64,000 bases of DNA from an archaeon (lineage in GTDB: Archaea; Thermoproteota; Nitrososphaeria; Nitrososphaerales; JACAEJ01): NCBI GenBank assembly GCA_024256285.1, contig JACGUG010000001.1, positions 17,191 to 81,190 of the forward strand. The letters are read 5' to 3'. Position numbers and translations under genes: made by a program. The notes under the pieces were generated by a model, which was not told the origin of the DNA, made no database searches, and saw only the letters and a program-made list of their open reading frames with translations. Shown piece by piece: positions 11,511 through 20,241 of the stretch (its first letter is position 1; every line of letters starts with the position of its first letter).

Positions 11511-12185
11511 GTGATGGTTACGACAACTGGCAAAACAAGGTATAGAAGGTTTGAGGACGACCTGAAGGTTTTGGTGGACAAGCTTTCTGAGGATGTTAAT
11601 AGCGATGTGAAGAAGAAGCTCGAAATCTTGAAGAAGAGGTTGATCAAACTGTACCATGATAATCTTGTGAAGATCAACCACTCTGTAATGGAGTTGATCT
11701 GTGCGAAGTCTCTTCTCACCCGTGGTTATGATGTAGATTTAGAGCGGGCCCTTGACATGGATTTTGTATGTGATGTCTTTGCTGAAAAGGGGGAGGGTGT
11801 CTTGATAATCGAGGTGGAGACAGGGTATACGCCCCCAGACCACGCCCTTGATCCAAGCAGATATAATGAAGCAAGGATTTCGAGTAAGATCGCAAGGTAC
11901 AGCTCCTACTCTAACAAGTTCGCCCTCGCAACGCCCATCTACAACATCCTTCAGATACCAGAGATACTCGGCAAGCCACCTAGATACCGTAGTAAGAGAG
12001 AAGTGCTAAAAGTGAAGAAGTTATGTGACGTCTACTACACAAGACCACCGATAACCGTGCAGCAGATCAGGGAGGCCAAACTTCAATCCATCTACATAAT
12101 CGATGTAGACAGGGCTTCGACACGGGAGATCGATCCTGAAACATACCAAGAGTTGGCATCAACGATAAGATCGACCTTGGCCTAG
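11511..12185 (+). CDS. hypothetical protein with PD-(D/E)xK / Hjc-like nuclease core
   Basis: The segment DMDFVCDVFAEKGEGVLIIEVETGY resembles the D...(E/D)xK beta-hairpin core of Hjc/restriction-endonuclease-fold proteins (Lys replaced by Thr). N-terminal coiled coil. Confidence 0.45.
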   Translation: MMVTTTGKTRYRRFEDDLKVLVDKLSEDVNSDVKKKLEILKKRLIKLYHDNLVKINHSVMELICAKSLLTRGYDVDLERALDMDFVCDVFAEKGEGVLIIEVETGYTPPDHALDPSRYNEARISSKIARYSSYSNKFALATPIYNILQIPEILGKPPRYRSKREVLKVKKLCDVYYTRPPITVQQIREAKLQSIYIIDVDRASTREIDPETYQELASTIRSTLA

Positions 12186-12317: not shown

Positions 12318-13703
12318 TTAAGATTCTTTTGTCTTTTGAAAGAGATCGACGACGTTTGCTATTATCTTCTTCGATGCAGAGAAGTGTTTTATAGGATCGA
12401 ATAAGCCCTTAACTTCCTCTTTCTTCAAGAGAGAGCCCAGTTCTTCATCTTTAAGGATGGCTTCAGAGTAGGGGATGTTCTCCTTCGAAGCCCTCCCTGC
12501 TGCATTGTTAAGCAGTCTATGAGCATGAGACCTCGATACGCTCTTTTTTAATAGAATATCCAATATGAACTCTGAGTATATCTGACCTTGGGTCAGATCG
12601 ATGTTGGACCTTATCTTATCGGCTCTGACTACGAGACCTCTCATGACCTTGGTCATCGAATTTATGCATTCATCCAGTAGTATGAAGGCTGAAGGGACCG
12701 TAATCCTCTCATTCGCAGAGTTCGATAGATCACGCTCATGCCATAAAGGTATATTCTGTAGAGCAACAGATGGAAGGGCTCTGATGAGCTTGGCAAGGCT
12801 GGACACCCTCTCACATTTTATAGGATTTCTTTTCATGGGAACTGCTGAACTGCCTATCTGAGTAGCTCTGAAGGGTTCTGCCACTTCTCTTATCTCTGTG
12901 CGCTGTAGGTTACGAACCTCCGTAGCCATCTTGTCCAGACTCGATGCAACCAATGCTGTGAAGAAGATGACTTCAGCCAAGATATCTCTAGGAACGACTT
13001 GAGTGGCAGCATCCAAAGGCTTCAAACCGAGCTTCTTGGCTGTAAGAGCCTGCACCTCCAAAGCCTTCTCCCCCATTACAGAGCCAGTTCCAACCACTCC
13101 AAGGGTCTTGCAGACGAGGGCCCTCTCTCTCAATTGGCGCAAGCGTAAAATGTGGCGGTTCATTTCGGAAGCCCATACAGCGAACTTCAAACCAAAGGGG
13201 ATTATACTTGTATGCTGGCCATGAGTCCTACCCACAGCGGGTAGATCTTGATATTCTAATGCTTTCTCGCATAAAATCTCTGTAAAGGAGATCATCTTAT
13301 CCTCCATTATCTCCATGGATTTCTTCAACTGTAAGGATAGAGACGTATCGAGAACATCGTTGCTCGTAAGCCCATAATGCACCCATGGCTTTGCTTCATC
13401 TCTGCAGACTTCCACTACTGCCTCTACCAAGGATGCCGTCTCATGCTGAGTGGCCGATTCTATCTCACGCCACCTTTCGATTGTAATGTATTCAAGGTTT
13501 GCCTTTGATACAATCTCCATAGCAGCACTCTTAGGGATCAGGCCGACCTCTGCTTGGGCCTCTGCGACAGCAGCCTCGACCATGAGTTGATAATTCAGGT
13601 AGCTCTCCTCTTCGAATACTTCCCTCATCTCTTTGCTACCATATCTCTCAGGTACAGGAAGAGTACTCCTCTCAGATGTCATAATAACTATCTTCAATAT
13701 CAA
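12318..13703 (-). CDS. purB: adenylosuccinate lyase
   Basis: Fumarate-lyase signature GSSAVPMKRNP; the N-terminal YGSKEMREVF is typical of PurB. The true start is probably the internal MTSERS. Confidence 0.9.
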   Translation of the reverse strand: MILKIVIMTSERSTLPVPERYGSKEMREVFEEESYLNYQLMVEAAVAEAQAEVGLIPKSAAMEIVSKANLEYITIERWREIESATQHETASLVEAVVEVCRDEAKPWVHYGLTSNDVLDTSLSLQLKKSMEIMEDKMISFTEILCEKALEYQDLPAVGRTHGQHTSIIPFGLKFAVWASEMNRHILRLRQLRERALVCKTLGVVGTGSVMGEKALEVQALTAKKLGLKPLDAATQVVPRDILAEVIFFTALVASSLDKMATEVRNLQRTEIREVAEPFRATQIGSSAVPMKRNPIKCERVSSLAKLIRALPSVALQNIPLWHERDLSNSANERITVPSAFILLDECINSMTKVMRGLVVRADKIRSNIDLTQGQIYSEFILDILLKKSVSRSHAHRLLNNAAGRASKENIPYSEAILKDEELGSLLKKEEVKGLFDPIKHFSASKKIIANVVDLFQKTKES

Positions 13704-14026
13704 TGATAAAAGTTGATCGCTGTGAACGATGATCGAGGTCGGTCAAGAAATAGATAATTTATTTTAATCGTCTCATCTTTATCTCCTTTAACCTCTTCTT
13801 AAACTCCTTGAGGGACATGGATTCGACCATGGGCAGACCCAGATTCATTGCTACGATCATTACATCTCTAAGCTCTGTCTTGACCAAGTTCTACTCTACC
13901 TCTAACTTTTGGAGCCTTTTTGTAACCTTCTTCACTTCATTTCTAAGCCAACTGGGCCAGTATAGTGTATCCCTCACCATCGGCATCTTCCTTCATCCTC
14001 GATCGATAGTCATTTCTAGAACATGT

Positions 14027-14329
14027 TCATGGCACCGAGCTTCTATAGACCTTGGCTATAGCAAGGGGTTGAGAAGGGTCGTTGTTTATAAAGCAGATTA
14101 CGATGGGTTCGCCGACCTTTAATTCTCCCCTTGTATAATCATCGATCAATTTCTTTGTAGCATAACAATCGAGTTCTACTTTTTCATTCATTATCATTCT
14201 TTTCACTCTTAAAGGTTTATCTTCGCTCGGGTTGATGGATTCTATATGAGCCCAGTAAATCTGACCATAAAACGATAATTCATTTCGAAGTTCGTCCATC
14301 TTTTTCTTGAGATTTTTTAGTATGCGCAT
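14027..14329 (-). CDS. baseplate spike gpV/gp5-like OB-fold protein (tentative)
   Basis: GQIYWAHIESIN...RVKRMI...ELKVGEPIVICFINNDPSQPLAIAKVY resembles the OB-fold N-domain of P2 gpV / Mu gp45 (vGe.V.v.f..gd...p.i). The start lies 4 nt after the upstream stop. Confidence 0.45.
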   Translation of the reverse strand: MRILKNLKKKMDELRNELSFYGQIYWAHIESINPSEDKPLRVKRMIMNEKVELDCYATKKLIDDYTRGELKVGEPIVICFINNDPSQPLAIAKVYRSSVP

Positions 14330-14333
14330 TATT

Positions 14334-15725
14334 TTATTCTACCCCCTCGAGCTTCTTCTCATATTCAGCAAGAATCTCAGCCATACTCAGACTCTTCTTC
14401 TTAAGTTCTAAATCTGTGGTGAGGCTGTCGCTATTCAAAGCGTGGGCATAAGCCTTTACAACGCTCTCCTCAGCATTTAAGCCGACCTGATCACAAGTTA
14501 TAGTCACCTTATCGAAGAGGTTTATCAAGAATAATGAAGGAAGAGAGAGGGATAATTCGTTGCCAGGATCCTTATGTAAAGCTGTAAGACTATCAGCCCT
14601 TTTTTGAGCAGTTGTGTTATCGGTTATGCTCGTATCCGTTTCAGTCCTCTCCCTCAACCAGTAGGCAGACTGACTCGCTGAATCTTCACCTGTTGCCGAT
14701 ACAGCCCCAGAGCCTTTGACGTAGATCTTGTTCAGAATTTCATCTATCTCTCCATGCTCGATCTGTATGATCTCTTCACCCTTTCTTATGGTTATGTTGG
14801 CTCTGGTTTCTTCCGAACTTACAGAAGCAAAGTGAATATCCTTGTTCTCATCAACATAGAAAACATAGCCTTCATCGTCTGCCAGTTGCTTTATAATTTC
14901 ACCAATAGGCTCATCGTTAAAGTCGTAGCTGGCTGTTGAGCCACCGCTAACATGATCGTATGTGAAGGTTCCAGAGAAATACAAATCCACTAAGTCCTTG
15001 ATGATCGCTCCTCTTGTCTGGGCTGAATAGCTCTTGCTCTTCGCCTCTCTGAAGTTGAGCCTCTTTGCATATCCTTGAGCAGATTCTATCTCTAATATCG
15101 ATGGTGGAAACTTCTTTCTTACACTATCAATATAGCCCCTGAAGAGCAGGAAGAGCAAGGCATCGTCGTCCCCTAATCTTATCTCTATCTCTGCTGGAAA
15201 TTCCAAACTGCTAAACTTGTTGCCTACATTCTCAAGTTCCAATGAAGCACAGGGCAGACCGCCTTCCCCATGTTCGATAGAACAAGATAGTATCTCATCG
15301 CTCATCTTGTAGATGACTTCATATCCCTCTTGATACATTATCTCATACACTTTAGTCCCAGATGATCCATGAGTGTTGACCTGAAGCCTTACATACCTCG
15401 CAATAATTTTAGAGAAGATGTGCTCTTTCCATCCGCTACCAGGATCACTAGCTTGATTCAGTAAATGAGCCCAATCTGAGGCGTTTAAAGAATAATCAAG
15501 ATCATAATTTGTAGGTCTATACGCAACATCTGCCCCCCAATAAACCTTAATCCCTGTTATGATCTTTTCTCCACCTAGATCGACATAAATCCAAGCATTA
15601 GCCTCATTTACTGGGTTTGGATACCACATTGATGTAGTGTCATTATCGATAACGTTGTCACTGATCCCCCACCCATACTTGAATGGTGGTATCCCTCGCT
15701 GCATAGTCTGTCCATGAACCGTCAT
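14334..15725 (-). CDS. F5/8 type C (discoidin) domain fused to gpD/gp27-like tail hub domain
   Basis: The N-terminal part (SDNVIDNDTTSMW...AWIYVDLGGEKIITGIKVYW...ARYVRLQV...VYEIMY) fits a discoidin domain. The remainder (LELEN...IEIRLGDD...LFRGYIDSV...ILEIESAQGY...IGEIIKQLADDEGYVFYVDENKDIHF) follows the late-control-D / tail-hub pattern. Confidence 0.6.
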   Translation of the reverse strand: MTVHGQTMQRGIPPFKYGWGISDNVIDNDTTSMWYPNPVNEANAWIYVDLGGEKIITGIKVYWGADVAYRPTNYDLDYSLNASDWAHLLNQASDPGSGWKEHIFSKIIARYVRLQVNTHGSSGTKVYEIMYQEGYEVIYKMSDEILSCSIEHGEGGLPCASLELENVGNKFSSLEFPAEIEIRLGDDDALLFLLFRGYIDSVRKKFPPSILEIESAQGYAKRLNFREAKSKSYSAQTRGAIIKDLVDLYFSGTFTYDHVSGGSTASYDFNDEPIGEIIKQLADDEGYVFYVDENKDIHFASVSSEETRANITIRKGEEIIQIEHGEIDEILNKIYVKGSGAVSATGEDSASQSAYWLRERTETDTSITDNTTAQKRADSLTALHKDPGNELSLSLPSLFLINLFDKVTITCDQVGLNAEESVVKAYAHALNSDSLTTDLELKKKSLSMAEILAEYEKKLEGVE

Positions 15726-15930
15726 ATTTAGTGAAGTCCCCAGCTATGAGATTAGCCGACCAACGGTTGAGCAATACATAGTTAGTTGAGTTTCCACCGC
15801 TGTATTCTGCACATATCCTTACATCGTTGCCCCCCTCAAGTGTTAAATTAAATGTAAATTCATACCCCTTATATGAGGAAGAGGGAATTGTACTAACATT
15901 AACTGTGTCAGGGAGGTTGCAAGAATCGAG
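15658..15930 (-). pseudogene. start-less open frame bridging the two flanking tail-protein ORFs (frame-shifted segment)
   Basis: Manual translation: LDSCNLPDTVNVSTIPSSSYKGYEFTFNLTLEGGNDVRICAEYSGGNSTNYVLLNRWSANLIAGDFTKYDGSWTDYAARDTTIQVWVGDQ*. It is beta-rich and continues the domain begun in ORF 15843..16865. The flanking ORFs 15843..16865 and 14334..15725 share one frame (both low ends are 0 mod 3); this segment is offset by one nucleotide. Confidence 0.45.
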
Positions 15931-16865
15931 CTATCGGATGATTTTCTGATCACACAAGTTAGAGTGCCCGTAGGAGACCCGTACCTTTTGAGCCAGAACT
16001 TTGCCTTAACAACGATTTTATCCGTTATGGTGATCCTGTGCCCTAACCTCTGATTATCGGCAGAACTGAGCCTATCGCTATAACTACCTTCGTTACTGTT
16101 ATCTAATAATAGCCCACTTTCATTACTACTAGCCTTGGTATCGGAAGGGTTAGCATAGGGTTGATAGCCTGGACCGAGCTTGATGGTAGCCCTCTTGCCT
16201 ATCCTATTCCTCTTATTCCCATAGACCTTGAAGTTGTCAAAGTAAGCCTCTCTATCCGTCGTCTGACAGAAGAACCTTACCCTCAGAGATTCACTTCTCG
16301 ATCTGTCGAACTCTTGCGTTGTAGTCCACCTGGTTACTGCTCCTTCCTTTATGGTTACTACGGCCTGATAGTATCCAGTCGATAAATTTAATTCGGTTAT
16401 CTGCAACTCGAAGGTGTAAGAAGTATCTGTAGCCCAAGCGTTGTCGCCTGAATAGACTGCTGCTTGCTCCGACCCATCCTTCACTCTTGTGAGTTTATAA
16501 CATTGAGTATGACCACCATCACTTTCAAAGGCTTCTACTCTAAAGAGGTATTTGCCATAAAAGCTCGTATCCACTATCATCCCATCTTCTATATCAGCAG
16601 TATCTAGTTCTATAGCAAAACCGCCGTCTTTAATCTCAAAGTCAAACTTAACAGTAAAAGGAATACGATACTCAGCCTTCGTCATGACGTTGACCTTTCT
16701 TCCATCTGCTGTTCCTATAGCTTTGAGATGAAGTTGGTTGTTGAGAATCTCCATCAGTTTAGTGGCGAAGGTTGAACCTGCTGGTGATAGGAAGGTCATC
16801 CATCTTCCACGATGAGGGAGAGCGTTATCTAATCCCGTAAAAGTATCCTTAAAGAGTAGTTTCAT
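15843..16865 (-). CDS. ConA/LamG-like lectin-fold protein (tail fibre / receptor-binding candidate), 3' end frame-shifted
   Basis: The N-terminal half ends with ...LRVRFFCQTTDREAYFDNFKVYG, typical of concanavalin-like jelly-rolls. The annotated C-terminal 20 aa (LMLVQFPLPHIRGMNLHLI) look non-native, whereas the alternative frame reads on coherently. Confidence 0.55.
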   Translation of the reverse strand: MKLLFKDTFTGLDNALPHRGRWMTFLSPAGSTFATKLMEILNNQLHLKAIGTADGRKVNVMTKAEYRIPFTVKFDFEIKDGGFAIELDTADIEDGMIVDTSFYGKYLFRVEAFESDGGHTQCYKLTRVKDGSEQAAVYSGDNAWATDTSYTFELQITELNLSTGYYQAVVTIKEGAVTRWTTTQEFDRSRSESLRVRFFCQTTDREAYFDNFKVYGNKRNRIGKRATIKLGPGYQPYANPSDTKASSNESGLLLDNSNEGSYSDRLSSADNQRLGHRITITDKIVVKAKFWLKRYGSPTGTLTCVIRKSSDSSILATSLTQLMLVQFPLPHIRGMNLHLI

Positions 16866-16866
16866 T

Positions 16867-17214
16867 TTATATCGCCATCAACACGCTAGCCTTTGCCCAT
16901 GACGAAGGTGAATCGACGGGACCTAAAGTGTAACCATCGGCCACAAGGTAATCGTTTACGATCTTTATCTTAGGCTTTGGGAGAGCATTAACGATGTCCT
17001 TGAACTCTTCCTCGATCATCTCCTTTTCGCTCTTCTCTTTGTTCCTCCTCGATCTTTGAGTACAATTCAATAGATGTAACTTAAAGACCGTGGCTTGTCT
17101 CCTCGCTATTCTTTCTCGAAATTCTTCTGGAAAGTCCTTTCTCTTTTTTACTGCCAGATGGGCTGCTAGATGATATAGGGCTGTCTGGGCTTGAGCACTG
17201 AACTCGCTTGAAAG
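16867..17214 (-). CDS. hypothetical virion-module protein; open frame extends 48 codons upstream of the only canonical start (TTG 17070)
   Basis: The frame is open from 17214: LSSEFSAQAQTALYHLAAHLAVKKRKDFPEEFRERIARRQATVFKLHL-LNCTQRSRRNKEK... The ALYHLAAHL..KR motif is reminiscent of gp6-like head-tail adaptors. The stop abuts the next ATG (TAAAATG). Confidence 0.35.
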   Translation of the reverse strand, partial: LSSEFSAQAQTALYHLAAHLAVKKRKDFPEEFRERIARRQATVFKLHLLNCTQRSRRNKEKSEKEMIEEEFKDIVNALPKPKIKIVNDYLVADGYTLGPVDSPSSWAKASVLMAI

Positions 17215-17795
17215 TCATCCCCAGCATAAGCAACATCGGTGAAGGCTACATCGGCTACGTCTATCATCTCTTCAAGGTCTTCAATAATATCGATAGTCTC
17301 TTCTACACTCTCTCCTACTTGTTCTACTTGCCTAGCCGCTTTACCTGCTGCTTTACCGAATAGACCGGTTTGTTGTCTTGCTTCAGCCATGGCACCGCTT
17401 ACTTCTGCTTCATAAGCCAACCATATCATAACTGCCCCTGCTGTTAAGGCTGCTACTACTTCGCCAACAGTTATAGCCAAACCTTTGATCGATGCTGCTG
17501 TGATCGTTGCTGTTATGCCCATCTCTTTCATGACGTTAGAAAAGCTTGATACTGCTGTTATGGCTGCTGGCCCCATCTGGATCAACATCTCGACTTGGGC
17601 TTCCCTAACTTTATCTGTCTTATCAGCCAAGTCTTCCTCAGCCGTTACGACCTTCTGCTCAGCAAGCTCTAACTTCTCTAAGGCCAACCTTGCTTCGTTG
17701 CTGTTCTCTCTGTATTTCTCAACAGCTTTATTATAAGATTCTAAGGCACTCTTGGCGGTGAGAGAAATGGTAGCCTCCAGTCCTCGTCCTCTCAT
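17166..17795 (-). CDS. coiled-coil plus hydrophobic-segment protein (tape-measure or scaffold-like fragment)
   Basis: An N-terminal heptad-like region (ALESYNKAVEKYRENSNEARLALEKLELAEQKV...) is followed by Ala/Gly-rich hydrophobic stretches and an acidic tail. The start overlaps the TerL-like ORF by 65 nt. Confidence 0.5.
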   Translation of the reverse strand: MRGRGLEATISLTAKSALESYNKAVEKYRENSNEARLALEKLELAEQKVVTAEEDLADKTDKVREAQVEMLIQMGPAAITAVSSFSNVMKEMGITATITAASIKGLAITVGEVVAALTAGAVMIWLAYEAEVSGAMAEARQQTGLFGKAAGKAARQVEQVGESVEETIDIIEDLEEMIDVADVAFTDVAYAGDDFQASSVLKPRQPYII

Positions 17796-18921
17796 ATTCT
17801 ATGCAGTTCAATGAACCAAGAAATTGGGTATCCTGTGGCAATGAGACCTTTCTCTGCTCGAAGAGAATCCTGAGGTTTGAGAGCAACTCCTCCCTGAACT
17901 TCTGGGTCAAGTTGAAGCCATCGACGGGCAAGTCCAGTTCTCTGGCATGTTCAACTATAGGGTTACCCAGACCTGTCATATCTATGGCCAGGCTCTTAAA
18001 TCGAAACTTCTTATGTAGGTCGGCTATCTCGACCGTGAATTGAGTGTATGGAATATCTTTGACTCCTCTGAAATACAGGGTATAAAGGTGGTCTTTCAGA
18101 CGTTCAATAACTACAAGGGCTGCCAAAGACTCCTTCCCGCCTGGGTCGTAACCAGCAAAGTACTCTCCACCCAATCTTGATTCCTCTAAACATTCATCGA
18201 TACAAGGTCTCAAGAGGGTCATAGGAAAGTAAGACCTACTATCATCGACGAACTCAGCAAGATATTCAAGGCGGTATCTTTCTTCTCCTATCAACTGCCT
18301 CTGCTCATCCAAGAACTCCTCTTTTATCAAGGGATTTTTAGAGCTTGGAAAGTGGTAGACGCTCCAATCTTTAGAGTTAAAGCATCTGTAAGTTATGTGG
18401 TCTCTATCCCAAGGCGTAGTAAGCATCCATATCTTTCCCTTGGTAGTTGTGAGCATGGGAAAGATGGCGTTGGCGATGACTTCATCATAGATGAATGAGG
18501 CTTCGTCTATAACGGCAAAATGAACGGTCAATCCCCTTAAGGTCGATCCATAACGTCCAGAGGGTAGACAGACGATCCTTGAGTTATTTTTGAAGATTAT
18601 CTGAGTCCTCGTCATCCTTTTCACTGAGTTACGAAGGATCGACGAGTTTATGAAGCCCAGAACCTTGTTGAAGGTCTCCATGCTCTGCCTCAAAGTTGCA
18701 GATACTACGATGCTCGTCGTCTTAGGGTTGGTTACAGCGAAGCGAAGGAGTTTTATGGCTGAGCATGTAGATTTTCCGACTTGACGGCCACAGATGGCTA
18801 TGAGCCTATCAGATTCATCTTCAAGAATCCTATCTTGGTAGTCGAAGGGATAGAATTTGAGGATCAGTCTTGAGAAGAGTACAGGATCGTCTTTTAGTGC
18901 CTTTAGCTTCTCCTTCTCCAA
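17731..18921 (-). CDS. terL: terminase large subunit-like ATPase/nuclease
   Basis: Walker A CGRQVGKS, Walker B HFAVIDEASF, coupling motif MLTTP, RNase-H-like nuclease start YFAGYDPGGKESLAALVVIE. The C-terminus (..GGYHFSHRQECLRIL) lacks the usual final acidic nuclease motif. Confidence 0.8.
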   Translation of the reverse strand: MEKEKLKALKDDPVLFSRLILKFYPFDYQDRILEDESDRLIAICGRQVGKSTCSAIKLLRFAVTNPKTTSIVVSATLRQSMETFNKVLGFINSSILRNSVKRMTRTQIIFKNNSRIVCLPSGRYGSTLRGLTVHFAVIDEASFIYDEVIANAIFPMLTTTKGKIWMLTTPWDRDHITYRCFNSKDWSVYHFPSSKNPLIKEEFLDEQRQLIGEERYRLEYLAEFVDDSRSYFPMTLLRPCIDECLEESRLGGEYFAGYDPGGKESLAALVVIERLKDHLYTLYFRGVKDIPYTQFTVEIADLHKKFRFKSLAIDMTGLGNPIVEHARELDLPVDGFNLTQKFREELLSNLRILFEQRKVSLPQDTQFLGSLNCIEYERTRTGGYHFSHRQECLRIL

Positions 18922-19148
18922 ACCTTCTCCCTACCCTTTGCGAAGTACCAACCTATGACCAGACCGTAAGGCTCACCCATTATTGCAGCAACCATCATAA
19001 CCGCTTCTGTACCAGACAAAAGCATGGCTACTAGGAGCAATGCTATGTACCCTGCAGTAGATATCAGGGCTATGAGCCCCCTCCAGTCGCCCTCGATCCA
19101 CCTTACCTCATCCTTCTTGACGATGAGCTTACCTTCCTTCTCAGCCAT
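18903..19148 (-). CDS. small two-TM membrane protein
   Basis: 81 aa with two hydrophobic helices (LIALISTAGYIALLLVAMLL, AVMMVAAIMGEPYGLVIGWYF). Overlaps the TerL-like start by 19 nt. Confidence 0.5.
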   Translation of the reverse strand: MAEKEGKLIVKKDEVRWIEGDWRGLIALISTAGYIALLLVAMLLSGTEAVMMVAAIMGEPYGLVIGWYFAKGREKVWRRRS

Positions 19149-19154
19149 ATTCCT

Positions 19155-19550
19155 TCACACCCTTATACAGACTATCTTCAACCCTCCGTCTTTCAAAGGC
19201 TCGAACTTCTGTACTCTACCGAGCTTGATTCTTTTCGATCTTAGACTCTTGATAGTTTTCTGGGCCGTCTTCTCGTCTATCATCTTTATCCTCATAGCAA
19301 TCCCTAAAGGAACGGATGTTATATCGTGGGCGTCTTCATCCGTGATTTCGTTGCTTATGATCAGATGAGGCTCACGGTAGCGATGGTCCTTGAATATTCC
19401 TACAAACCGACCTACAGACTTCTTATAGGTTGCGAAGGTCTTGTTATTGAAGGATCTTACATTCTGTGTTACGCAGGCATCTATCCATAAGACTTCTATC
19501 AGGCAACCCTTCTTCAACTTGGGCAGCACATCTTGCACTATCTTCCTCAT
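19155..19550 (-). CDS. hypothetical protein (virus-like module)
   Basis: 131-aa ORF tightly packed with its neighbours. No family recognised. Confidence 0.5.
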   Translation of the reverse strand: MRKIVQDVLPKLKKGCLIEVLWIDACVTQNVRSFNNKTFATYKKSVGRFVGIFKDHRYREPHLIISNEITDEDAHDITSVPLGIAMRIKMIDEKTAQKTIKSLRSKRIKLGRVQKFEPLKDGGLKIVCIRV

Positions 19551-19831
19551 CCATCAGTAACCTCCAAGATCTTGAATAGTTTCTTCGCCTGCTTCTCAGG
19601 TAAGTCCAACTCAGAAAGTAGCTCAGACAGGCTCTTACGATCCGCAGTCTCTATCCCTACCTCCCTCAGTACTTTAAGGAGGGCGCCATACAGAGAGGCT
19701 AGGACTCTGGCATAATTTATGAGCTTCTTCTCGCTTCTGGTCTTTCTAGCCTTTTCATTTATCTTATCGATAAGAGCCGATATCTCACGGATGATGTCTA
19801 TCGCGTTCTTGTCGATTTCATCATGGCCCAA
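19547..19831 (-). CDS. hypothetical helical protein (position compatible with small terminase / DNA-binding)
   Basis: 94-aa all-helical ORF, first gene of the module. Has a 4-nt overlap with the next ORF. Confidence 0.45.
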   Translation of the reverse strand: MGHDEIDKNAIDIIREISALIDKINEKARKTRSEKKLINYARVLASLYGALLKVLREVGIETADRKSLSELLSELDLPEKQAKKLFKILEVTDG

Positions 19832-19941
19832 TTTCCTTCTTTAGTAAGAGTAGGGTGTTATGATTTAAGGAGTGTCGGCGGTGAGGCGGTGCACCTATGC
19901 CACTATGTAACTATGCATCCTACCCAGAGATACTACTGATT

Positions 19942-20241
19942 TTAAGCCATCTTCAACATCGACTTGAGCAGGTCCCTATACTCGATCTTTTCTAGAGAAC
20001 TGCTAGGAGCAGGTATCTCGTATATCAGAGGGACGGCCTGTTTTGTCCTTATATCTGTAAGTTTACTGCGAATAGGTCTTCCTGCATCATCGCTAACCAA
20101 GATCAAGCCTACCTCTTTGTCCTGCATCATCTTCATGATCTCCTTTAAGGCTTCTTCAGAGGTTTTGACCTCTATCCCAGCCACGCCAGCCAGCCTGAAA
20201 CCTGTTACAAAGCTCCTCTTGCCTACTGCTAATACACGCAT
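19942..20241 (-). CDS. atpF: A/V-type ATP synthase subunit F
   Basis: MRVLAVGKRSFVTGFRLAGV...GLILVSDD...PLIYEIPAP matches subunit F. Confidence 0.85.
   Translation of the reverse strand: MRVLAVGKRSFVTGFRLAGVAGIEVKTSEEALKEIMKMMQDKEVGLILVSDDAGRPIRSKLTDIRTKQAVPLIYEIPAPSSSLEKIEYRDLLKSMLKMA

Follow-up and report, generated by a model that had tools for sequence, protein, structure and literature searches.

The block of open reading frames (ORFs) located between the host genes purB and atpF in a 64,000-nt stretch of archaeal DNA (hereafter the window; contig JACGUG010000001.1 of assembly GCA_024256285.1, positions 17,191 to 81,190 of the forward strand) is very probably the non-functional, decayed remainder of a tailed archaeal virus (Caudoviricetes) that had integrated into the genome. 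This virus was probably siphovirus-like, of the Haloferax tailed virus 1 (HFTV1) type, and its host belongs to Ca. Methylarchaceae (Nitrososphaeria, Thermoproteota). The survivors are two fragments of a virion-assembly gene set: a packaging operon made up of o1, o2, o3 and the gene of the terminase large subunit (TerL), and a tail-tip region consisting of a tape-measure fragment, a baseplate hub gene and a small ORF. An internal deletion joined TerL to the tape-measure gene and thereby cut off the last part of TerL's nuclease domain, and one or two 1-nt frameshifts broke the hub gene. Judging from three contigs with related genes (L035, L010 and P0122; sequences used for comparison carry L or P numbers throughout), the lost interval would have comprised the genes for portal, protease/capsid, connectors and tail tube. 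No gene of the block would be able to build a particle or to package DNA.

An initial annotation, made from the sequence alone, had left the choice between a decaying provirus of a tailed virus and an adhesin or tail-tip cassette retained by the host. The former is favoured by the absence of the block from a sister genome, by the viral nature of TerL, by the hub match and by the damage to the TerL, tape-measure and hub genes. The supposed lectin ORFs turned out to encode hub-gene domains. The block is not a functional provirus, in that portal, capsid, protease, tube and integrase genes as well as attachment (att) sites are missing, and integrase, replication and regulatory genes gave no Pfam or PHROG family match within it. 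Nor does it have the intact, conserved module of a domesticated element, since it is missing in the one close sister genome that was compared and the module is broken.

The packaging operon and its junction with the tape-measure fragment

All ten ORFs of the block lie on the minus strand and span positions 19831 down to 14027. They abut or overlap as originally described, with overlaps of 4 nt between o1 and o2 (19547-19550) and of 19 nt between o3 and TerL (18903-18921), and a TAAAATG junction between o6 and o7. The features of the upstream part are:

19547..19831, minus strand: o1 (94 aa), upstream partner of the TerL clade; a 71% identical homologue is found at the same position in L007
19155..19550, minus strand: o2 (131 aa), partner of the TerL clade; homologues in L007 (69%), L001 (40%), L005/L006 (38%) and L035
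18903..19148, minus strand: o3 (81 aa), small hydrophobic protein; directly upstream of TerL in L007, L001, L035/L036 and L005/L006 (tblastn)
17731..18921, minus strand: TerL (396 aa), truncated gene or pseudogene; ATPase domain intact, nuclease domain largely so
17750..17762 (17755±5), minus strand: deletion junction; TerL codon ~390 joined out of frame to tape-measure-like codon ~89
17166..17795, minus strand: o5 (209 aa), chimeric; the first ~13 codons are TerL in an alternate frame, the rest a 5'-truncated tape-measure-like gene
16867..17236, minus strand: two short orphan ORFs of 51 aa (17081-17236) and 67 aa (o6, 16867-17070)

By its sequence, TerL is a genuine Caudoviricetes terminase. 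It has an ASCE ATPase domain with Walker motifs, and the terminase profiles that it matches are phrog_2 of PHROG (terminase large subunit, E 3.7e-41) and Terminase_6N of Pfam, the latter with a score above the gathering threshold (E 2.7e-16). The three hallmarks emphasized in the initial annotation, i.e. CGRQVGKS (Walker A), HFAVIDEA (Walker B) and DPGG, are all present. A protein search returned 206 relatives, most of them 410-450 aa long, from virus contigs and from metagenome-assembled genomes (MAGs) of Nitrososphaeria/Thermoproteota, including those of Nitrososphaerales, Thaumarchaeota, Caldarchaeum, Geothermarchaeales and Thermofilum; a TerL scan of genome contigs gave no match. The grouping of TerL had been suggested as a test of the viral reading, and its relatives are indeed viral terminases, whose genes lie on virus contigs or within proviruses that look intact. 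In an IMG/VR contig a 59% identical TerL is followed by a co-oriented portal gene, and a 32-kb contig with a TerL relative carries primase, PolB and integrase genes. L035, a 461-kb thaumarchaeal contig (GCA_023379805.1), contains an intact-looking provirus with a 62% identical TerL and structural genes for a portal, a 755-aa protease-capsid fusion, a Phage_tube_2 protein, a gp10-like protein and a tape-measure-like protein.

The window TerL is incomplete. In every tblastn comparison homology stops at window nt 17752, that is, after residue 390 (HRQ), and the ORF ends six codons later in unrelated sequence. The four relatives whose ends were read (62-79% identity) terminate in ...TGGYxFTHRxGTxDDLAYALALA..., while the window protein terminates in TGGYHFSHRQECLRIL, directly followed by the stop codon and without the acidic GTxDDLAYALALA motif. 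The C-terminal ~26-40 residues are missing, which leaves the RNase H-like nuclease domain incomplete and without its last acidic motif.

On the other side of the junction, residues 12-89 of o5 (nt 17762-17529) align with residues 87-164 of a 374-aa protein encoded by L034 (78 aa, 50% identity). The closest hub relative, too, is found on L034, a contig of a Nitrososphaerales MAG. The gene order on this contig is a gp10-like gene, the 374-aa gene (g374), a 265-aa 'tail protein' gene (g265) and the hub gene. This puts g374 in the tape-measure position, and it is through g374 that o5 can be linked to tape measures by homology and position. The tape-measure call of the initial annotation relies on this link, and its profile matches are weak (phrog_1272, E 0.024 for o5; phrog_167, E 0.0011 for g374; no Pfam match). 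The fragment has no in-frame start codon of its own.

Since the TerL end and the tape-measure start lie within a few nucleotides of 17755 and in different frames, the junction bears the signature of an internal deletion, which took the TerL C-terminus, the first ~86 tape-measure codons and everything between them. The junction is base-for-base identical in L008 and L009, two assemblies from other sequencing runs, which excludes a chimeric contig. The absence of portal, capsid, tube and integrase genes from the block had been pointed out from the start and was borne out; moreover, tblastn with the relatives' genes for portal, capsid and tube gave no match in any part of the window. Downstream of the tape-measure fragment, the 51-aa ORF and o6 gave neither a family match nor a tblastn match to g265 of L034 or to other loci; in relatives this interval is occupied by a Dit/baseplate-tail-connector-like gene.

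By position alone, o2 is a candidate for the small terminase subunit. No named Pfam or PHROG family was matched by o1, o2, o3 or their homologues, and the PHROG scans of the o1-o3 homologues give no support for identifying o1 or o2 as the small subunit. It is a feature of the whole TerL clade that a hydrophobic protein of ~75-80 aa is encoded directly upstream of TerL, often overlapping with it (window 18903-19148; L001 9242-9478; L035 9742-9918; L005 9813-10001; L007 3151-3384). This o3-type protein occupies the slot where the small terminase subunit is normally expected.

Other observations concern the surroundings of TerL in relatives. The gene directly downstream of TerL in L007 (4625-5680) and L035/L036 (11259-12773) encodes an ABC-type ATPase (504 aa in L035) whose C-terminal part shows a weak, sub-threshold match to GNAT acetyltransferases. 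A conserved and, for a terminase, unusual neighbour, it adjoins TerL relatives of 79% and 62% identity; owing to the deletion, the window lacks it. In L035 (1-9939) the structural operon is divergent from the o1-o2-o3-TerL operon, and the window remnants are co-oriented; gene order thus varies in the group. L002 (10001-11293; 168-kb contig, GCA_030157145.1) encodes a full-length, 62% identical TerL with a single upstream partner of 108 aa; the 10 kb to its left and right are free of structural genes. Solitary terminase relics of this kind may recur among these archaea.

The baseplate hub gene and o9

The downstream part of the block is dominated by one gene that is distributed over three reading frames:

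14334..16865, minus strand: single baseplate-hub/Tal-like gene in three frames (o7, middle piece, o8)
15843..16865, minus strand: o7 (340 aa), N-terminal piece of the hub gene
about 15678-15925, minus strand: middle piece of the hub gene, in the second frame
14334..15725, minus strand: o8 (463 aa), C-terminal piece of the hub gene
15900..15925 (near 15915), minus strand: frameshift 1, from o7 to the middle frame; same sequence in the independent assembly L008
15666..15670, minus strand: frameshift 2, from the middle to the o8 frame; a G5 run, frame restored by G4 in L008
14027..14329, minus strand: o9 (100 aa), downstream of the hub gene; possible OB fold

When o7 (residues 1-318), the middle piece and o8 (residues 21-463) are joined, the repaired hub protein comprises 843 aa and aligns end to end with residues 3-830 of P0123, an 830-aa orthologue (48% identity). 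The order of its parts is an N-terminal PHRGxW domain, a beta-rich middle, a discoidin domain and a gp27-like hub domain. Likewise, the ten closest relatives (32-60% identity) carry the o7-homologous N-terminal domain with a PHRGKW motif and the hub domain in the same polypeptide. A three-frame translation of 15690-15990 showed that the final 22 residues in the o7 frame are unlikely sequence, and that the middle frame, which has no start codon, stays open over 83 codons and reaches to within a few nucleotides of the point where o8 homology begins. No Pfam domain was found across frameshift 1. Frameshift 2 coincides with the sole indel between the window and L008 (run SRR24270827), which has one G fewer (window 15666, L008 11585); as L008 ends only 20 nt away, the G4/G5 difference is either a homopolymer polymorphism or an end-of-contig error. 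Compared with its 830-aa orthologue, the hub gene is therefore interrupted by two frame changes, one shared between assemblies and one polymorphic. Together with the 3' truncation of TerL they confirm the broken frames noted initially. The tail-tip gene set proposed at that stage stands as far as the hub is concerned; the 'ConA/LamG' and 'discoidin plus hub' ORFs are not separate genes but pieces of one.

The hub assignment draws on a family of 644 relatives, retrieved when the C-terminal 339 residues of o8 served as query in an exhaustive HMMER search; this exhaustive search was required, word-indexed protein searches having returned only two and then four matches. Among 50 members scanned against PHROG, 32 matched phrog_1887 ('tail protein'), 30 phrog_400 and 14 'baseplate hub' families, and the Pfam families hit were YQBQ (23 of 50), Prophage_tail (6 of 50) and, with one or two members each, GpP-like and Phage_GPD. 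The window sequence itself matches phrog_1887 with E 7.5e-7. The profile of the family, to which the window sequence contributes, matches baseplate hub gp44 of HFTV1 (PDB 9h4p) with E 2.4e-26 over ~350 positions (residues 25-378), whereas VgrG-like hub chains of contractile injection systems (CIS; 9gtr, 7b5h and 7aef) are matched more weakly (E 5e-14 to 6e-11). The gp27/gpD-like hub of the initial annotation is accordingly a member of the baseplate hub family, but its closest solved relative comes from the siphovirus HFTV1 and not from the contractile P2/T4 set.

Similarity to characterized hubs is complemented by location downstream of a tape measure. The window hub gene follows the tape-measure fragment after o6, and in L034 a hub homologue is the second gene downstream of the tape-measure-like one. 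L010 has the order portal, protease, capsid, adaptor, tail protein, tape measure and hub. In P0122, a 36.7-kb virus contig, the hub gene comes directly after the tape measure; this contig also carries Phage_tube_2 and integrase genes and no sheath gene. When metagenome contigs were searched with P0123, only distant hub relatives were obtained, and its own contig was not recovered. An AlphaFold2 model of the hub, computed from a five-sequence alignment, had a mean predicted local distance difference test score (pLDDT) of 44.7, which is too low for a fold search.

Because the hub matches the HFTV1 baseplate hub and relatives carry Phage_tube_2 without a sheath, the ancestral virus was, as far as these sequences indicate, most likely siphovirus-like. 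A contractile origin (myovirus or CIS) was considered and ruled out on the same grounds, i.e. the presence of Phage_tube_2 and the lack of a sheath in the relatives.

The discoidin domain that the initial annotation had seen fused to the hub is present at the start of o8 (F5/8 type C, E 3.3e-19). The ConA/LamG jelly-roll is at best a putative one: the N-terminal hub domain has no LamG match in Pfam, and a profile of nine homologues produced only sub-threshold matches (E 0.1-1.2) of its first ~35 positions to four GH16 glucanase structures. GH16 enzymes have a ConA-like fold. The hub of the ancestral virus may have possessed N-terminal domains of a carbohydrate-binding type for host recognition. 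With binding-type domains placed N-terminally to the hub domain, an unusual order, the protein is a candidate receptor-binding protein of this virus group.

The gpV-like OB spike proposed for o9 found no backing in spike families. No match to Pfam or PHROG (E <= 0.1), to Phage_base_V or to PDB sequences was obtained, virus contigs contain no relatives of o9, and nothing corresponding to it adjoins or is fused to the hub relatives. The single-sequence AlphaFold2 model (pLDDT 61) displays a beta1-3/helix/beta4 topology, and the best Foldseek hits in the PDB are generic OB folds (E >= 6e-3), none of which comes from a phage. This modelled OB-like topology is possibly that of a spike, with which it is compatible, but it is not specific to spikes; a match to a gpV/gp5-type spike profile or structure was not found.

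The host locus and competing explanations

13747..19811, minus strand: inserted element (6,065 bp), missing in HK01M (blastn)
13747..14026, minus strand: right-end remnant with short interrupted frames only (three-frame translation); boundary derived from blastn against HK01M
19942..20241, minus strand: atpF, A/V-type ATPase subunit F, host flank (Pfam ATP-synt_F, E 1.4e-17; 89% identical in HK01M)
12318..13703, minus strand: purB, adenylosuccinate lyase, host flank (Pfam Lyase_1, E 4.2e-49, and ADSL_C; 93% identical in HK01M)

The Pfam matches confirmed the flanking genes named initially. Comparison of the purB-atpF interval among related genomes, as envisaged in the initial annotation, was possible with one close sister genome, HK01M (Ca. 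Methylarchaceae; ~90% identity), whose locus (contig L037) turned up when one-genome-per-species contigs were searched with purB. By blastn, collinearity between L037 and the window extends from 25820 down to 2584 at 89-92% identity, with a single gap: L037 3483-9471 corresponds to window 25820-19812 and L037 9480-15855 to window 13746-7355 (90-92% identity). The atpF and purB genes are direct neighbours in HK01M, spaced by 183 nt. As HK01M lacks 13747-19811 at collinear flanks, the block is a lineage-variable insert; a conserved cellular operon is ruled out by this empty site. The adjacent region contains, between an asparagine-synthase-like gene and purB, a 224-aa ORF (11511-12185, plus strand) that is 90% conserved in HK01M and has no Pfam match.

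The 'empty' site retains a trace of the element. The first ~20 nt of o1 (encoding MGHDEID; window 19812-19831) are also found there (L037 9452-9479), the HK01M sequence being TTGGGCTATGACGAAATCGA and its window counterpart TTGGGCCATGATGAAATCGA. Based on this similarity, the HK01M site may mark where the same element was deleted, instead of never having been occupied. The element would be heading for loss, with the sister species having either shed it before or lacked it all along. Base composition of the block is not distinct from that of the flanks. Integration targeted to a tRNA gene was considered and dismissed, as tRNA and Rfam scans of the window were devoid of matches.

An alternative is that the host has retained (exapted) the cassette, in which case the hub with its discoidin and N-terminal binding domains, perhaps together with o9, would act as an adhesin or tailocin-like tip, and the TerL ATPase and o1-o3 would maybe have a cellular role. 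This would agree with the uninterrupted frames of o1, o2, o3 and the TerL ATPase domain and with the G4 allele of L008, which repairs one of the two hub frameshifts; moreover, Krupovic et al. 2019 (PMC6563490) brought up domestication for thaumarchaeal head-tail loci in which att sites and replication genes are missing. We consider it improbable, however, given that the block is missing in a ~90%-identical sister species, that frameshift 1 is common to independent assemblies, that the C-terminal acidic motif of TerL is gone and the tape-measure fragment lacks an in-frame start, and that a hub on its own has no tube or sheath for attachment. The chances are slim, too, that a decayed remnant has been exapted in part, with either the o1-o2-o3 and TerL-ATPase unit or the hub being expressed, for instance as a surface lectin or adhesin or in antiviral defence; the hub could in that case be produced via slippage at the C-run/G-run or be intact in the G4 allele.

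It is very unlikely that the block represents a cryptic integrated element or virus satellite which by nature has just a terminase operon plus some tail genes taken from a helper virus. Elements with TerS and TerL only are known in Thaumarchaeota (NitKor-E1; PMC6563490), and the 62%-identical TerL of L002 has no adjacent structural genes, but the TerL-tape-measure boundary severs both genes in mid-domain and out of frame, which marks a deletion as opposed to a designed gene set; in addition, the hub gene carries frameshifts, and no integrase, replication or regulatory gene accompanies it. The most improbable explanation is an assembly artefact, i.e. a chimeric MAG contig made of viral reads and host DNA with sequencing errors in place of frameshifts. 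The window does derive from a MAG, and frameshift 2 lies in a G homopolymer that differs between assemblies. Yet assemblies of two other runs show the same two junctions, atpF-o1 and TerL-tape-measure, as well as frameshift 1, with 99.98-100% identity over 11.6 kb and 1.7 kb, and HK01M confirms the host synteny on both sides. This explanation is already largely refuted.

We thus favour a decayed remnant of an integrated tailed virus, and the following points have to be set against it. No direct repeats, att sites or target duplication were found flanking the insert, and insertion in the window lineage and deletion in HK01M cannot be told apart, the o1 start being common to both. The putative siphovirus nature derives from relatives and not from genes of the block. 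In L035, the best-resolved intact relative, the TerL and structural operons are divergent and not in tandem; a single simple deletion in such a layout cannot yield the window arrangement, so that a co-oriented, L001-like layout must be assumed. One of the two hub frameshifts is missing in L008, and the structure models of both the hub and o9 are of low confidence and give no confirmation at the level of folds.

Relation to known viruses and proviruses

The remnant links HFTV1-like tailed viruses to Ca. Methylarchaceae (described in PMC9478090), a methanogen-related Thermoproteota lineage without a virus report that we found in the literature; a search for papers pairing 'Methylarchaeales' with 'virus' was negative. 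The remnant would be the first indication that this little-known lineage is infected by viruses of that type. TerL, its o1-o3 partners and the hub sequence can serve as bait for an intact virus in the same metagenomes. Otherwise the locus documents routine provirus decay and opens no new mechanistic question.

With the gp27/gpD/VgrG hubs of contractile systems (Mu gp44 'GpP-like', P2 gpD 'Phage_GPD', PBSX/skin YqbQ, AlgoCIS and Anabaena CIS) the hub shares family matches to YQBQ, GpP-like, Phage_GPD and CIS chains. It differs from them in that a sheath is found neither in the window nor in the loci of relatives, which carry Phage_tube_2 instead, and in that no gp5-like OB/beta-helix spike is fused to it, the separate 100-aa o9 having no Phage_base_V match. 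For HFTV1, the baseplate hub gp44 (BPH) and a tape measure, gp40, of 341 aa have been described (PDB 9h4p; PMC12494034). Short tape measures (341 aa in HFTV1, 374 aa in L034) and the order tape measure, connector and hub are common to HFTV1 and the relatives of the block. Unlike the HFTV1 hub domain, which is N-terminal and has downward extensions, that of the block is C-terminal and preceded by the PHRGxW, beta-rich and discoidin parts; the window hub is also frameshifted, and its host belongs to Thermoproteota and not to Halobacteriota.

Head-tailed proviruses or relics are known in Thaumarchaeota/Nitrososphaeria, namely Nvie-Pro1, NCAV2-Pro1, CalSub-Pro and NitKor-E1 (Krupovic et al. 2019, PMC6563490), and the block is a further, more degraded example of them in a different host family. 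Like the published thaumarchaeal head-tailed loci it is devoid of att sites and replication genes (PMC6563490), it resides in the same host class, and its TerL relatives come from Nitrososphaerales, Caldarchaeum, Geothermarchaeales and Thermofilum. The protease-capsid fusion encoded by its relative L035 is another trait shared with Nvie-Pro1-type proviruses. By contrast, its host is a member of Ca. Methylarchaceae, and decay has proceeded much further, with zero head genes left. NitKor-E1, which contains TerS and TerL only, has been read as the relic left when a head-tailed virus integrated in the past (PMC6563490); compared with it, the block described here retains tail-tip genes in addition and displays the exact junction of a deletion.

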